Origin: a virus
Length of the DNA stretch: 35,904 nucleotides
Direction: 5' to 3' (one strand)
UHGV virus genome: UHGV-0042151
The translations under genes and the position numbers were made by a program. Positions within the stretch are counted from its first letter, which is position 1; every line of letters begins with the position of its first letter. Below are positions 2,342 through 33,322 of the stretch, piece after piece. The notes under the pieces were generated by a model that worked only from the letters and a program-made list of their open reading frames with translations, made no database searches and was not told the origin of the DNA.

Positions 2342-3159
2342 ATGTACATATCCTGTTTGCGTGCCCACTCAGGGCGTTTAATGATTTCCACACCGCCCCA
2401 TTCATCATTGATGCGGCATTCGTGATAGGTATTCAGATCCCGGCGGAACAGAGCGTGCCCGGCATCGACATCCTGCGCATCCAGCTCGAACACGCGTACC
2501 GGATACCGACCACAATCAATGCTTTCGCTCACGGCAAGAAAGAAAAAACCATGCGGCTGACCAGTAACCCTCATTGCGCCTTCGCGGTACATTGCGTCCT
2601 GCACGTGGTAGCGGAATTCCTCGATGTGGCGTGCAAAACGGTCCATATCTGCAACCTTTTTCACGTCGACGATCACGTTGTGCTCGTTCAGCCATTTGTC
2701 TGGACGAATTCGGCACAACTCCCCCGTCTCTTCATCGTTCCAGTACATTGATGCTTCGCAGTAACCAGGTGCTTCCAGCATCCAGCGTGCCGCCGGGTGA
2801 GCCATTGCGCTATCACGCATCAGCTCCAGTTTCCGCCACTGCTCGGCATCAAGTACCGTAATCCCCATATCCGCCACATCACGAAGAAATTCCTCTTCGT
2901 CAGCTTTACCTTGTTTCGTCCGACGATCGAATTTCGGTGAAACAATGAAGCGTTTGTCGAACTCTCCAGGCTCCAGAAGCAGACAGTGCAATGCGGTTCC
3001 CATATCCAGTGCAGACTTTTTCTCTTCGTCTTCTGGTGCTGCCTGAACCCATTTAAGAAGCGCCGGATTCTTGGCAACCATGTCCAGTTGCGACTTACTC
3101 ACGCCGTCACCGGCGTGGTAGTCTTCGTTGCTGATGTCGAAATAAATTCCCGGTTTCAT
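2338..3159 (-). CDS. putative PD-(D/E)XK-family exonuclease (RecE/YqaJ-like partner of the annealing protein)
   Basis: 273-aa ORF; 'VIVDVKKVAD' D-x-K type motif; ATGA start/stop overlaps with both neighbours (3156-3159 and 2338-2341). Confidence 0.6.
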   Translation of the reverse strand: MKPGIYFDISNEDYHAGDGVSKSQLDMVAKNPALLKWVQAAPEDEEKKSALDMGTALHCLLLEPGEFDKRFIVSPKFDRRTKQGKADEEEFLRDVADMGITVLDAEQWRKLELMRDSAMAHPAARWMLEAPGYCEASMYWNDEETGELCRIRPDKWLNEHNVIVDVKKVADMDRFARHIEEFRYHVQDAMYREGAMRVTGQPHGFFFLAVSESIDCGRYPVRVFELDAQDVDAGHALFRRDLNTYHECRINDEWGGVEIIKRPEWARKQDMYI

Positions 3160-3455
3160 GCCGCGTCCCTCTGCCCATCAAGCTGATCAGCCAGATCCCA
3201 GCGGGCGATAATTGCCATTGCCTCGCGCCGGTAGGCATCCATTAGTTCTTCGAACTCAGGGCTGTCTTTAGCGGCCTCCAGTACTTCCTGGCGAACGCCT
3301 TTAACTGTTACAACGTCGAAAGTTGATGCCAGTTGATGAAGCCGGATACTCTCAATCAGTTCAACTTGTCGGTCATATAGCTGTTCTGACAGACGGTAGT
3401 CCTTGTCGAATGCCAGCATGATTTTTTGAAGATTTTTCTGCTGATTAACGTTCAT
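3156..3455 (-). CDS. hypothetical early protein (99 aa)
   Basis: ATG 3455 preceded by GGAGGG SD with 6-nt spacing; stop overlaps exonuclease start. Confidence 0.5.
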   Translation of the reverse strand: MNVNQQKNLQKIMLAFDKDYRLSEQLYDRQVELIESIRLHQLASTFDVVTVKGVRQEVLEAAKDSPEFEELMDAYRREAMAIIARWDLADQLDGQRDAA

Positions 3456-3786: not shown

Positions 3787-3883
3787 NNNNNNNNNNNNNN
3801 NNNNNNNNNNNNNNNNNNNNNNNNNNNNNNNNNNNNNNNNNNNNNNNNNNNNNNNNNNNNNNNNNNNNNNNNNNNNNNNNNNN
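3787..3883. other. unresolved sequence (97 N) preceded by A9-T25 homopolymer tract
   Basis: Run of N at 3787-3883; track ORFs spanning it are artefacts (X residues). Confidence 0.95.
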
Positions 3884-3896
3884 GAAAAATATGGTT

Positions 3897-4481
3897 TTAT
3901 TGTTTGTTTTTTTCGTTATGGTTGATGACAAATTCAATGTAACTTTCGATCTTTGCTTTCTCGGTTTCGGGTAACAATGCGTAGCGCGAGCGATCATAGT
4001 TGATGGTCGCAGGGTCGTGCGGGTGAATCAGTAATTCATAGCCGTGACGCCCGAATGCGGATGCAACATTCTCCAGGGTGGAAATGGAAACGCTGACCTC
4101 ATTGTTTAACAGGCGGCTGATTGTCACCTGGGCTACGCCGGATGCGCGGTGAAGTTTTCCCTGTGTTGAAAGGTCGCGGCTTTCGCTCATCCAGCGTTCC
4201 AGGTTGTGAGCCGCCAGCTGGCCAATGTCGCTTGGGCCGACAGGCTGAAAACCTTCCTGAGAAAGCGAGCGATCGATATCAAGCCAGTTACGGGGTTTAT
4301 TGGCGGCAGCTTCAATTTTTCGTGCAACCTGGTCGCCGATAACCTTCTTGCCAAGAGCCCAGCGGTTTACCAGATTTGCCTGAGTTCCAAGTTTTTCAGC
4401 CATCCGCGTCTGAACACCATTGAATTCACGGTCGATCAAGTCGTTGAGATTTTGCCTGCGGACGTCCTGGATACTTTTCAT
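3897..4481 (-). CDS. phage repressor-like protein with two tandem XRE/CI-type HTH domains, no S24 peptidase domain
   Basis: 194 aa; HTH-like segments 'MAEKLGTQANLVNRWALGKK' and 'ASGVAQVTISRLLNNEVSVSISTLENVA'; divergent from Cro-like gene; no Ala-Gly/Ser-Lys autocleavage module seen. Confidence 0.65.
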   Translation of the reverse strand: MKSIQDVRRQNLNDLIDREFNGVQTRMAEKLGTQANLVNRWALGKKVIGDQVARKIEAAANKPRNWLDIDRSLSQEGFQPVGPSDIGQLAAHNLERWMSESRDLSTQGKLHRASGVAQVTISRLLNNEVSVSISTLENVASAFGRHGYELLIHPHDPATINYDRSRYALLPETEKAKIESYIEFVINHNEKNKQ

Positions 4482-4866: not shown

Positions 4867-4889
4867 TATCCAGCCACAACCCTCTGTAN

Positions 4890-5024
4890 NNNNNNNNNNN
4901 NNNNNNNNNNNNNNNNNNNNNNNNNNNNNNNNNNNNNNNNNNNNNNNNNNNNNNNNNNNNNNNNNNNNNNNNNNNNNNNNNNNNNNNNNNNNNNNNNNNN
5001 NNNNNNNNNNNNNNNNNNNNNNNN
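4890..5024. other. unresolved sequence (135 N)
   Basis: Run of N at 4890-5024. Confidence 0.95.
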
Positions 5025-5046: not shown

Positions 5047-5061
5047 GTACCTCAAAGGTAA
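5047..5061. promoter_or_regulatory. palindromic site, imperfect (GTACC-N5-GGTAA)
   Basis: GTACCTCAAAGGTAA, 9/10 half-site match; 80 nt upstream of ATG 5142. Confidence 0.35.
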
Positions 5062-31201: not shown

Positions 31202-31615
31202 ATGAAGGAATTATTGCTGTTATCGGTATTTTTGATATCCGCTTGCTCGACATCCTATGATGTTTATGACGGTGTTGATAAGGCATATTGCGACAAAGTT
31301 AAAATGGATTTTTCTCTTGCCAAGACGGCGAAGGATAGTTGTATTGATCACTACGTCAAGACTTATACCAAGCCAGCCTCATCGGCATCTGATATTGCTG
31401 AAGGTGCTGTGTTTGAGTGTAACAAGGTGATATCCATCGCAGCGAGTTCTTCATACGATGCTGCTGTATGTGCAATGGCTGAAAGAAACGGCATGTCAGT
31501 GCAAAAAATTAATAGCATGATAAGCAGTAATGACGAAGCCAAAATAAGAACTGATATCAGCTCGGTGAAAAAAGATGCCATGAACAGAGTTGTAAAATAT
31601 CAGTCATCTTTATAA
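31202..31615 (+). CDS. lipoprotein (137 aa), candidate superinfection-exclusion or moron product
   Basis: Signal peptide plus lipobox 'LISAC' then Cys; own terminator. Confidence 0.55.
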   Translation: MKELLLLSVFLISACSTSYDVYDGVDKAYCDKVKMDFSLAKTAKDSCIDHYVKTYTKPASSASDIAEGAVFECNKVISIAASSSYDAAVCAMAERNGMSVQKINSMISSNDEAKIRTDISSVKKDAMNRVVKYQSSL

Positions 31616-31631: not shown

Positions 31632-31655
31632 GGCCGCTTTCGCGGCCTTGTTTTT
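31632..31655 (+). terminator. rho-independent terminator
   Basis: GGCCGC-tttc-GCGGCC followed by TTGTTTTT. Confidence 0.6.
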
Positions 31656-31815
31656 AACGAATGCCACCGCCACCCGGGCGGGAATCCGCAGAACGCCCAC
31701 CGCAGCGGGAGCCGTCAGCAGCAGTGTCGCTGTCGTGCTGACAACGACCGGCAAAGGCCTGAGTTGAAGCTACCAGAGACAACAAAACGAACAGTGCAGC
31801 AAATGCTTTTTTCAT
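31654..31815 (-). CDS. small secreted peptide (53 aa precursor)
   Basis: 'MKKAFAALFVLLSLVASTQAFA' signal peptide then 31-aa Gly/Arg-rich tail with 2 Cys; upstream TTGACG-17-ATAGAT promoter-like. Confidence 0.4.
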   Translation of the reverse strand: MKKAFAALFVLLSLVASTQAFAGRCQHDSDTAADGSRCGGRSADSRPGGGGIR

Positions 31816-31886
31816 TGTGAAATTTCCATCTATAAGCCACCTCAATGTGGCGTCAATGAGTGTAGCACTGACTTTTGTTTCGCCCA

Positions 31887-31909
31887 CAAAAAAGCCCGCA
31901 GCGCGGGCT
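31887..31909 (-). terminator. rho-independent terminator (minus strand)
   Basis: AGCCCGC-gcu-GCGGGCU then U6 on minus strand, starting at the stop codon of the 31908 gene. Confidence 0.5.
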
Positions 31910-32348
31910 ATTCTTCTTCATCATTAAAAAGCGGATTGTTGTTTCCATCTGATGAAAGGAAAGGTATGTGTTCTCTTGAAAATCCAACAATGACAATTTC
32001 ATTATCATTTTTTGCATAATGAATGCATTCATTAGAATGCCTTCCGCCAGGGTTGAAATTTAAGTTAATGGTATAATTCTTAAATGTGTTTGGATACCAT
32101 GTTGGCCCACAATGATAATGCCAATAATTCTCTTGCTCATAATTGTCTGAGCCGGGAATTTTATCATGGTTATCATCAACCCACGAGGGCTTGTTTTTTC
32201 CAACAAGCGCCCTTCCATTGGCAACATCCTCTAAAAAACTTTGTATGATTTTTATTTCATCATCAGTAAGGAAAGGTCCGTCTACAGCGAAAGGGGTGTT
32301 GCTTTCCCCATGTAGAAAACTATTAGATATTCTAATGTTAAACTTCAA
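31908..32348 (-). CDS. hypothetical AT-rich protein (146 aa), second gene of two-gene operon
   Basis: TTG start 32348 with AGGAG SD 6 nt upstream (the track's ATG 32489 start has no SD and overlaps the small ORF); no recognisable domain. Confidence 0.4.
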   Translation of the reverse strand: MKFNIRISNSFLHGESNTPFAVDGPFLTDDEIKIIQSFLEDVANGRALVGKNKPSWVDDNHDKIPGSDNYEQENYWHYHCGPTWYPNTFKNYTINLNFNPGGRHSNECIHYAKNDNEIVIVGFSREHIPFLSSDGNNNPLFNDEEE

Positions 32349-32368
32349 GGAAAACTCCTGATGTGCTT

Positions 32369-32536
32369 CTATTTGGAGCGAAATGCCGCCTTGAAGTCGC
32401 TGAAAGATGTTCCTGTCTGGTAAACCATATCCTTGTCGCGCTCTTTGCTTGCGCGGCCAAGCATAACTTTTCCAATGACATCCCAGCATTGCTTGGCTTG
32501 TTCATTGTGCTGAGTACGATTTTTCAACGCTGTCAT
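32369..32536 (-). CDS. small hypothetical protein (55 aa), first gene of two-gene operon
   Basis: AGGAGG SD 6 nt before ATG 32536; 'MTALKNRTQHNEQAKQCWDVIGKVMLGRASKERDKDMVYQTGTSFSDFKAAFRSK'. Confidence 0.45.
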   Translation of the reverse strand: MTALKNRTQHNEQAKQCWDVIGKVMLGRASKERDKDMVYQTGTSFSDFKAAFRSK

Positions 32537-32548
32537 ATCGCGCCTCCT

Positions 32549-32563
32549 TTACCTTTAAGGTAA
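32549..32563. promoter_or_regulatory. palindromic site TTACC-N5-GGTAA at promoter of two-gene operon
   Basis: Minus-strand TTGCAG-17-TACTAT promoter-like element abuts the site; site abuts SD. Confidence 0.5.
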
Positions 32564-32611
32564 TAGTACGCTATTCACCCACAGTCTGCAATCTGTACAG
32601 AATTATTTAAA

Positions 32612-32627
32612 GGCACATCCCTGTGCC
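32612..32627 (-). terminator. possible terminator after Bro-N gene
   Basis: GGCACA-GGGA-TGTGCC hairpin with A/U-rich 3' flank on minus strand. Confidence 0.3.
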
Positions 32628-32635
32628 GCCGCCCG

Positions 32636-33322
32636 TCAGAAGAACCCAGCCTTGTCGTTGATGTACTCCGCGTGGGTCTGGATATCACGCAGGCATTTGC
32701 TCACACCAACAATGTAGCAGAACATGGTGGTCAGCTCCGCCGCCGCGCCCGATACGTCGTGCCCGTCTTCCTGTAACTGGTTCAGCAGATTCATCAGCAG
32801 TGAGTTCTCCGTCAGGCCGAGAACACCAGACGGAGAATGAATCAGGCTGCGGTAGCCGGGCTTCAGTGGGGCACTGTAGGTTTTGTTCTCTATCTTCATT
32901 GCCTGCATCACTGCTGATGCTGTGGCGTTGGCTACCTGGTCGGCAACTATCTTTATGCGTTCTTCCTGCGGGAGCGAGTTTTTAATGTAACTTCCGGTGC
33001 GGCGGATCTGAGGAAGAACCTCACCTGTAACCCATTTACGAAAGCGGTAGGGGATAGTGCCTGGTGTCACTGCGTCGCGGCAGCGGAGGATCAGTGTGTA
33101 GAGGCCTGACTCGTTGATAATATTGGTTTCACCTTGACGGCCTAAGTTAAATTTAGCCCTTTCATCATCATCAAGAGATTTTATTGACATAGTGGGGTTT
33201 GTCAGTTGAAGAGCTTTAATAACGTCTTTGGCAACAAACCAAGGATTTCCATCAATAACAATGGCTCGAATGGTGGCTTCTGATTCAAAATGAAAAACAG
33301 ATGGGGTTACGTTAGCAGTCAT
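32636..33322 (-). CDS. Bro-N domain antirepressor-like protein
   Basis: N-terminus 'IRAIVIDGNPWFVAKDVIKALQL...GLYTLILR' fits Bro-N; C-terminal domain homologous to the 34473..34730 product; AGGTGA SD then ATG 33322. Confidence 0.65.
   Translation of the reverse strand: MTANVTPSVFHFESEATIRAIVIDGNPWFVAKDVIKALQLTNPTMSIKSLDDDERAKFNLGRQGETNIINESGLYTLILRCRDAVTPGTIPYRFRKWVTGEVLPQIRRTGSYIKNSLPQEERIKIVADQVANATASAVMQAMKIENKTYSAPLKPGYRSLIHSPSGVLGLTENSLLMNLLNQLQEDGHDVSGAAAELTTMFCYIVGVSKCLRDIQTHAEYINDKAGFF

Follow-up and report, generated by a model that had tools for sequence, protein, structure and literature searches.

Two short genes lying in tandem downstream of the Bro-N gene ant of a prophage raise the question of what they encode and of which regulator controls them. 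The genes, ORF-A (55 aa) and ORF-B (146 aa), are on the minus strand of UHGV-0042151, a viral genome sequence of 35,904 nucleotides (the window, to which coordinates refer unless another record is named) that is an Escherichia coli prophage of the phiV10/epsilon15-like group (Uetakevirus). A first-pass annotation of the sequence had described the pair as a moron operon with the layout of a toxin–antitoxin (TA) or defence cassette. We consider it probable (roughly 0.6) that ORF-A and ORF-B constitute a bicistronic type II TA-like module of a family not described before, which we would classify as a new family of the known RelE/ParE-superfamily kind of type II systems. Its distinguishing features are a minimal partner domain that is new, a candidate toxin gene with a weak start codon other than ATG and, in this phage group, a promoter that belongs to the cargo slot of the phage and lies under a phage operator.

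Reading frames, predicted fold and conserved partner

The ORF-A and ORF-B frames are both real genes: they are called by PGAP, are matched by PHROGs from end to end and, in a sign of purifying selection, diverge from their relatives mainly at third codon positions. In NZ_CP033635, a 100% identical E. coli chromosome, PGAP annotates exactly ORF-A and ORF-B as coding sequences, both hypothetical, with the Bro-N protein upstream and a 53-aa protein downstream. Bro-N proteins of this kind have been shown in a sister phage to function as anti-repressors (PMC9782041). The PHROGs that match the two products have no assigned function. Relative to the Serratia and Erwinia orthologues, the divergence at codon positions 1/2/3 is 0.30/0.19/0.62 for ORF-B and 0.26/0.22/0.67 for ORF-A. 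The two co-oriented genes are separated by 20 nt. ORF-B has a GC content of 35.6% (30.6% at third codon positions), in keeping with its earlier description as markedly AT-rich; the values for ORF-A, ant and the window are 47%, 49.7% and 49%.

The proposal that ORF-B starts at TTG 32348, behind an AGGAG Shine–Dalgarno (SD) sequence, is upheld by its relatives. The Serratia orthologue starts at TTG and the Erwinia orthologue at GTG, each with an in-frame stop codon 12 nt upstream; the Klebsiella aerogenes relative also begins at TTG, the N-terminus (MKF/MKI) is conserved among relatives and residues 4–7 form a confident strand in the structural model described below. On these grounds the 193-aa ATG-initiated open reading frame (32489..31908), a form annotated by some depositors, was rejected as a product and is an artefact of an open upstream frame; its 47-aa extension overlaps ORF-A in another frame. 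All the other features that had been described were found in place when the sequence was read again, including the strong ribosome-binding site (RBS) of the small gene (AGGAGG, 6 nt upstream of the ATG), the −10 hexamer adjoining the palindrome (they share one T) and the terminator beginning at the ORF-B stop codon. The last consists of the hairpin AGCCCGCGCTGCGGGCT followed by TTTTTT, starts within the TAG stop and was detected by a terminator scan at 31909..31893.

The ORF-B family is fairly broad: a word-indexed search found 34 clusters, and a profile search against 1.84 billion proteins yielded 118 representatives (50% identity). Across 95 sequences that are 22–54% identical to ORF-B, His77, His79 and His127 are invariant, while conservation is 90% or more at Phe11, Gly50, Asn52, Lys53, Tyr78, Tyr111 and Phe130; the recurring motifs are GKNKPSW, YWHYHCG, IHY and SxxHxPF. 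As the first-pass annotation had stated, neither product matches a recognized family. ORF-B has no match in Pfam, NCBIfam or PADLOC, its 28 close and 95 distant relatives yielded no usable family-model match, and a profile search of PDB sequences returned chance matches only. ORF-A has no match in Pfam or NCBIfam, a profile of its domain likewise found only chance matches among PDB sequences, and PADLOC-DB v2 contains no defence-system match for ORF-A, ORF-B or their neighbours.

An AlphaFold2 model of ORF-B, computed from the 28-sequence alignment, has a predicted local distance difference test score (pLDDT) of 92.3 and a predicted TM-score of 0.86. In a Foldseek search of the PDB, RelE/ParE-type toxins rank first, with target-normalized TM-scores of 0.5–0.6 and E-values that are not significant; a search of the viral database BFVD gave no significant match. 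The model displays N-terminal helices packed on an antiparallel sheet, as in the RelE-like fold, whereas by sequence ORF-B does not belong to the described RelE/ParE toxin families. From the model, we conclude that ORF-B probably adopts an RelE/ParE-type (BECR) fold enlarged by additional N-terminal elements and by an insertion near residues 80–107. The conserved Lys, His and Tyr residues are located on or just after predicted sheet strands 52–54, 75–79, 108–114 and 117–124. The catalytic residues of RelE, YafQ, HigB and YoeB are on the sheet, and the conserved residues in the ORF-B model may map to the active site of such toxins. Some relatives are longer: P0098 and P0121 carry an N-terminal CxxC...CxC zinc-ribbon-like extension, and P0130, P0136, P0139 and P0153 have a C-terminal extension of ~100 aa, a domain without known identity. 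Such proteins may represent the module in fused or multidomain form.

A direct homology search with ORF-A returned close homologues only. In almost every locus inspected, a homologous ORF-A-type domain of ~50 aa is encoded directly upstream of the ORF-B relative, by which the two families are seen to co-occur and, as judged from the sequences, to co-diverge. The pair was seen in about 25 loci from at least ten genera, plus plasmids (Serratia, Pectobacterium, Erwinia, Klebsiella, Proteus, Pasteurellaceae, Neisseriaceae and plasmid loci), as an adjacent, co-oriented and tightly spaced unit; the partner always comes first and the spacing ranges from ~30 nt to overlapping. The partners are 56–64 aa long in Serratia, Pectobacterium, Erwinia and K. 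aerogenes (where the gene was missed by annotators) and 60–62 aa in Proteus and on small plasmids. The ORF-A-like domain forms the C-terminus of a 102-aa protein in a Klebsiella lambdoid prophage, and in Pasteurellaceae and Neisseriaceae (L013–L028, genes ending at ~2995–3001) it is the C-terminal part of a 159–211-aa partner with a hydrophobic signal- or anchor-like N-terminal segment and a helical middle without a Pfam match. The 71-aa partner in Aeromonas, which aligns only partly, is a doubtful exception; the 66-aa partner in Enterobacter adelaidei looks different and is an exception. In Enterobacterales ORF-B begins with a weak TTG or GTG; in the window its TTG contrasts with the ATG and strong RBS of ORF-A.

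The module is also mobile. It is the main cargo of cryptic plasmids of ~3 kb and resides in accessory slots of several prophages, namely downstream of the Bro-N gene in the E. coli Uetakevirus slot, directly downstream of Bro-N in Serratia and Pectobacterium prophages and in the nin region of the Klebsiella lambdoid prophage, where it forms a three-gene unit (95, 102 and 161 aa; L006–L008). In Erwinia it is a two-gene chromosomal islet between accA and an IF-2B-family (mtnA-like) gene, and in Proteus it adjoins a DnaD-like replication gene. Plasmid records carrying the module number 37; the 15 plasmids among the matches listed are all 2.7–4.6 kb in size, and three that were inspected have two to three annotated genes each, the module gene among them. 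Moreover, ORF-B is frameshifted beside an intact partner in Canicola (L017, 2986–3426) and in a Neisseria metagenome-assembled genome (L028, 1596–2102), and an E. coli variant (P0006) is frameshifted after Tyr111. Mobility, carriage by minimal plasmids and decay of the toxin gene with retention of its partner are the usual signature of TA systems (for an overview of RelE/ParE, see PMC11980606). A 42%-identical ORF-B relative was found in a 9.8-kb record, Vibrio phage 10N.261.55.B9_PE002 (PQ189326.1, 1456–1887), whose size suggests a satellite-like element with accessory cargo.

Among known systems, the ribosome-dependent mRNA interferases RelE, YoeB, YafQ and HigB are among the closest: they form small bicistronic modules, antitoxin-first in relBE, yefM-yoeB and dinJ-yafQ, and are spread over plasmids, prophages and chromosomes. 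The active sites of YafQ and HigB consist of conserved His, Lys and Tyr residues on sheet strands, as do the conserved positions in the ORF-B model. Unlike RelE-type toxins (~85–100 aa), ORF-B has 146 residues, with its N-terminal elements and insertion, and ORF-A, unlike their antitoxins, is a new domain of ~50 aa with no ribbon–helix–helix, helix–turn–helix (HTH) or Phd-type DNA-binding domain; nor does it appear to be a DNA-binding antitoxin that autoregulates its own operator, a feature that many but not all type II systems have. Thirteen Pfam families of BECR toxins have been listed (PMC11980606), and ORF-B has no sequence similarity to any of them.

The YafN–YafO system has the same antitoxin-then-toxin order, and the YafO-family pair gp45–gp44 of phage TL-2011b occupies the same slot as ORF-A/ORF-B with the same promoter, palindrome and terminator. 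In addition, the YafO invariants H60-x-H62, Y88 and H109 parallel H77-x-H79, Y111 and H127 of ORF-B in order, and the best hhalign alignment places the WHYH of ORF-B over the AHIH of YafO. Homology to YafO was nevertheless rejected and is kept only as a lead, as no ORF-B family member matches PF13957 (YafO_toxin), for which E. coli YafO (132 bits) and gp44 (26.3 bits) served as positive controls, and neither BLASTP (E = 1.5 for ORF-B versus gp44; no alignment of ORF-A with gp45) nor hhalign gave a significant result. An AlphaFold2 model of E. coli YafO (pLDDT 46) was too poor for comparison of the folds. PaaR2–PaaA2–ParE2 resembles the module in that a minimal antitoxin-sized partner (PaaA2 is 63 aa) stands beside an RelE/ParE-fold protein in a prophage, and in that control apparently lies with a separate DNA-binding protein, here presumably a phage regulator acting at TTACC-N5-GGTAA. 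It differs in that ORF-A is unrelated to PaaA2 in sequence, the cassette has no dedicated third regulator gene, and ParE toxins target gyrase and are devoid of the conserved His/Lys pattern of ORF-B.

The cargo slot downstream of ant and its probable operator

The 1.1-kb region around the cassette recurs at 100% identity in several E. coli chromosomes and at 99.5% identity in phage phiv142-3. Of 5,426 complete E. coli genomes, 72 carry its full cassette segment, compared with 535 that have the flanks alone. In phiV10 the slot is empty: 31677..32624 is missing and homology restarts at 32625. Homology to TL-2011b reaches 31931 and restarts at 32548, so that essentially only the two coding sequences are swapped; its slot contains the same −35 and −10 hexamers, a TTACC-N5-GGTAA site and the same terminator, and its cargo is a 59-aa gene and a 181-aa YafO-family toxin (gp45–gp44; L002, 3294–3993), with gp44 just above the 25-bit cutoff of PF13957. 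In EC.W1-9 the cargo is a 108-aa protein and a 167-aa DUF2335 membrane protein (L031, 2781–3582); the promoter region is different but a TTACC-N5-GGTAA site and the same terminator are present. From these comparisons, the slot downstream of ant behaves as a place where cargo can be exchanged while the terminator stays fixed and the region upstream retains an operator. As the promoter, palindrome and terminator are common to unrelated cassettes in sister phages, they are to be regarded as features of the slot and not of the cassette. Coordinates are collected in Table 1.

Table 1. Features of the ORF-A/ORF-B cassette, its slot and the phage-wide palindrome
Feature	Position	Strand	Remarks
−35-like hexamer TTGCAG	32586..32591	-	3/6 consensus positions; kept in phiv142-3 and TL-2011b
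−10-like hexamer TACTAT	32563..32568	-	17-nt spacer from TTGCAG; last T is first T of palindrome
Palindrome TTACCTTAAAGGTAA	32549..32563	.	Perfect TTACC-N5-GGTAA copy; probable operator of phage regulator
SD sequence AGGAGG of ORF-A	32543..32548	-	6 nt ahead of ATG
ORF-A, 55 aa, candidate antitoxin	32369..32536	-	WP_000125783; phrog_8607; ATG 32536, stop 32369
SD sequence AGGAG of ORF-B	32355..32359	-	6 nt ahead of TTG 32348
ORF-B, 146 aa, candidate toxin	31908..32348	-	WP_000671198; phrog_5954; TTG 32348, stop 31908
'orf10', 52 aa	32060..32218	-	QGF19616.1; out-of-frame ORF within ORF-B; interval also removed by published knock-out
Intrinsic terminator	31887..31909	-	7-bp GC-rich stem, 3-nt loop, T-run; begins inside stop codon
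Hairpin GGCACA-GGGA-TGTGCC	32612..32627	-	After ant stop; read from sequence, not called terminator by scan
TTACC-N5-GGTAA copies, 15 bp each	3630, 3692, 4537, 4585, 5047, 6975, 7037
TTACC-N5-GGTAA copies, 15 bp each	11901, 11919, 15109, 32549, 33594, 33687, 34807

The palindrome, TTACC-N5-GGTAA (ATTACC-N5-GGTAAT in extended form), has 14 copies in the window, where 0.46 would be expected (at most one mismatch; 11 copies are exact), and 14 at equivalent places in phiV10, which is without ORF-A and ORF-B (0.62 expected). The copies are often paired, bracketing promoter-like sites, and they flank a gene for a 194-aa HTH repressor (3897..4481; HTH_3). From this distribution, the copies probably serve as operators for a global regulator of the phage, with the HTH prophage repressor as the probable binding protein. 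The repressor is identical in phiV10, phiv142-3 and ZX5 and shuts down lytic genes; its operators were not defined in that work (PMC9782041). Two runs of N, 3787–3883 (97 bases) and 4889–5024 (136 bases), mask sequence by the repressor gene and in the early region, and the site at 5047 lies ~20 nt past the second. The palindrome was rejected as an autoregulatory operator of the cassette since it is phage-wide, is present in the cassette-less phiV10 and precedes unrelated cassettes. The first-pass annotation had assigned the cassette its own operator-bearing promoter and terminator, which cannot be sustained, as these three features also serve the YafO-family cassette of TL-2011b.

The promoter TTGCAG-17-TACTAT is present as had been described. 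It agrees with the consensus at only seven of 12 positions, was not reported by a promoter scan and is on its own not above chance. It gains credit because at three other promoter-like sites of the phage, 3630(-), 7037(+) and 33594(-), the last upstream of ant and reported by the scan, the −10 hexamer likewise ends on the first T of the palindrome. By analogy with these sites, the weak cassette promoter is probably genuine and would be occluded when the palindrome is occupied. A site that is phage-wide and overlaps the slot promoter would place the module under the gate of a phage regulator, and its position over −10/+1 suggests such control rather than the constitutive lysogenic expression of a classic moron.

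The comparison with morons in the sense of Hendrix and Juhala is accordingly a divided one. The pair is inserted between conserved flanks from which it is absent in phiV10, with other cargo in TL-2011b and EC.W1-9; its GC content deviates and it is bracketed by a promoter-like site and a terminator. These points support the moron label given earlier, but the promoter and terminator are common to other cargos, and the promoter bears the phage's own operator, which makes expression in a repressed prophage doubtful. Similarly, the TA/defence-moron reading gains from the insertion relative to phiV10, the atypical composition, the small-then-large order, the predicted RelE/ParE fold and the co-diverging partner, and loses the cassette-specific operator.

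Upstream of the Klebsiella lambdoid cassette, too, there is one palindrome, and the Serratia and Pectobacterium versions are likewise preceded by copies of it; part of the 5' region, palindrome included, may therefore travel with the cargo. The Klebsiella unit (L006–L008, 3391–4486) follows a terminator and a lone ATTACCATTAAGGTAAT site, the sole copy in 8.5 kb. A search that covered the Erwinia, Pasteurellaceae, Proteus and K. aerogenes loci found no palindrome there.

Further details of the slot are as follows. The stems of the terminator hairpin are identical in the window (31893..31909) and in TL-2011b (L002, ~3290..3310), with the 3-nt loop reverse-complemented (GCT versus AGC). TL-2011b contains an inverted second copy of the 3' end of Bro-N/ant (L002, 2732–2988; window 32613–32869; 97% identity over 257 nt) inside its other Ant gene, gp42. 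Because of this copy the TL-2011b cargo block is bracketed by inverted repeats, and inversion or exchange could occur. The hairpin following the ant stop codon could either act as a weak terminator or mark the edge of the insertion relative to phiV10. Beyond the cassette terminator, the 53-aa protein (31654..31818, minus strand) has a signal peptide, matches phrog_14503 ('membrane associated protein') and is preceded by a promoter-like TTGACG...TATAGA; next to it, a probable lipoprotein of 137 aa (31202..31615, plus strand; phrog_8691) has the lipobox LISAC and a faint T4 Spackle-like match (E = 0.8). At the position of the lipoprotein, phiV10 encodes a 46-aa protein with two transmembrane segments. 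Both neighbours are candidate exclusion or conversion genes.

The published orf10 and the weighing of alternatives

In the GenBank record of phiv142-3 (MN187550), ORF-B is not annotated; a 52-aa 'Orf10' is instead annotated in another frame inside it. phiv142-3 is a prophage of avian pathogenic E. coli in which orf10 was reported to affect serum resistance (Li et al., 2020; PMC7724020). In chicken serum, orf10 RNA rose 2^4.12-fold (~17-fold), being low in lysogeny broth (LB), and ant rose 2^1.31-fold (~2.5-fold). The Δorf10 mutant grew normally in LB, whereas in serum its growth was weaker and its survival was ~60%; kps transcripts were about 2-fold lower and the loads in chicken blood and heart were 7–8% of wild type. 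Complementation was reported, the extent of the complementing fragment not being stated (all PMC7724020). The 60-nt recombination arms of the knock-out match window 32219–32278 and 32000–32059 exactly, so that the mutant lacks ORF-B codons ~44–97, including the GKNK and WHYH motifs. The orf10 frame itself is not conserved, with the exception of the NYWHYHCG codons, which read out of frame as IIGIIIV (a recurring IIGxIxV); we therefore rejected the 52-aa protein as a real product, and ORF-B is the gene to which the published phenotype should be ascribed. This phenotype can be reconciled with the tolerated deletion of a toxin gene.

Judged from predicted fold and genomic context, ORF-B is probably a toxin that is neutralized by ORF-A. 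We infer ribonuclease activity, toxicity, neutralization, the operator-binding protein and the biological role in the following way. ORF-B would be an RelE/ParE-superfamily (BECR-fold) protein, most likely an endoribonuclease, with His77, His79 and His127 on its active face and Lys53, Asn52, Tyr78 and Tyr111 as helpers, and would cut mRNA and thereby arrest translation. ORF-A would be a minimal 55-aa neutralizer that binds ORF-B and has no recognizable DNA-binding domain; its strong RBS and ATG, against the weak TTG of ORF-B, would keep the antitoxin in excess. Transcription is apparently not autoregulated by the antitoxin: it would proceed from the slot promoter, with its −10/+1 region under TTACC-N5-GGTAA, and would be controlled by a phage regulator, for which the HTH prophage repressor is the probable candidate. 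The likely role is that of an accessory cargo of the addiction or abortive-infection type.

This reading is further favoured by the YafO-family toxin cassette at exactly the same slot position in TL-2011b and by the tolerated deletion of the ORF-B gene (Δorf10 is normal in LB). Several observations weigh against it. No sequence-level link connects ORF-B to any toxin family in the Pfam, NCBIfam, PADLOC and PDB-sequence profile searches, and hhalign against YafO is not significant (E = 0.09–0.015, probability <3%), whether run in local, low-MAC or global mode and whether or not the profile included gp44. ORF-A has neither a detectable DNA-binding domain nor a PDB relative, the long partners with a hydrophobic N-terminal segment are unusual for antitoxins, and the upstream palindrome is not cassette-specific. 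In addition, orf9, which corresponds to ORF-A, is absent from the list of up-regulated genes although orf10 rose 17-fold (PMC7724020), and the knock-out phenotype, with reduced serum resistance and a 2-fold decrease in kps, is not obviously explained by a TA model.

The operator offers a different, although improbable, account in which ORF-B acts in the lytic phase, as an RNase or a ribosome-binding protein that serves host shut-off or timing, with ORF-A as its inhibitor or chaperone; the pair would be expressed only when the repressor leaves the operator and would serve neither addiction nor defence of the lysogen. An operator copy over −10/+1, the same layout at the promoter-like site of ant, the palindromes flanking the repressor gene, the key role of the repressor in the lysis–lysogeny decision of this phage group (PMC9782041) and the rise of orf10 RNA in serum together with many prophage genes (PMC7724020) would all fit. 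Against it, the same module is carried by ~3-kb plasmids and chromosomal sites with no surrounding phage, the Erwinia chromosomal copy and most other non-phage loci have no such palindrome, phiV10 and other sister phages manage without it, and the knock-out phenotype appears in the lysogen (PMC7724020). That phenotype would instead suit a non-toxic regulator or RNA-binding factor with an RelE-like fold, acting for example on capsule genes with ORF-A as cofactor, in a lysogenic-conversion or virulence moron: the deletion lowers kps, serum survival and organ loads (PMC7724020), and the similarity of fold is only moderate. We hold this, too, to be unlikely, since the invariant three His and Lys in 95 distant relatives point to catalysis over mere binding, the linked small upstream partner, carriage by tiny plasmids and decay of the toxin gene are typical of TA, and the fragment used for complementation is of unstated extent (PMC7724020).

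Much less probable is an exported or envelope-associated toxin–immunity-like pair in place of a cytoplasmic TA system. The signal- or anchor-like segments of the Pasteurellaceae and Neisseriaceae partners and the signal-peptide protein and lipoprotein encoded next to the cassette lend themselves to it, but neither ORF-B nor E. coli ORF-A has a signal sequence, no secretion or delivery domains were found, and partner-first order with an RelE-like fold fits cytoplasmic type II systems. We give hardly any credence to the view that the functional product is the 52-aa orf10 (32218..32060) or the 193-aa protein, for which the MN187550 annotation, the depositors' calls and the reported complementation (PMC7724020) could be cited: the recurring IIGxIxV is a by-product of the NYWHYHCG codons in an unconserved frame, the third-position-biased divergence, confident fold and PGAP/PHROG calls favour the 146-aa frame, and the 193-aa form conflicts both with the stop codons upstream of the orthologues' TTG/GTG and with its overlap of ORF-A.

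To return to the type II module, a bolder form of this reading, which we regard as rather unlikely, is that it is the founding example of a new family of BECR-fold toxins with a new antitoxin domain that does not bind DNA. In phiV10/epsilon15-like phages it would be gated by the prophage repressor through the phage-wide operator, silent in the stable lysogen and firing when the prophage is induced or a naive cell is infected, to effect host shut-off, exclusion or abortive infection. The site between ant and the terminator would then be a dedicated operator-controlled docking site for this module and for the YafO-type and DUF2335-type cargos.

If the TA reading is true, a fairly widespread unannotated family, found on many cryptic plasmids of ~3 kb of Enterobacterales, Aeromonas and Vibrio, would be added to the RelE/ParE (BECR) toxins together with a new partner domain. 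A published virulence-associated gene has to be re-read: the orf10 deletion removes the core of a protein with a predicted RelE fold, and the effects on serum resistance and capsule should be assigned to ORF-B and ORF-A. The region downstream of ant in Uetakevirus prophages is a slot for exchangeable cargo whose promoter, operator and terminator are fixed, and the analysis exposes a probable genome-wide operator network of the phage.

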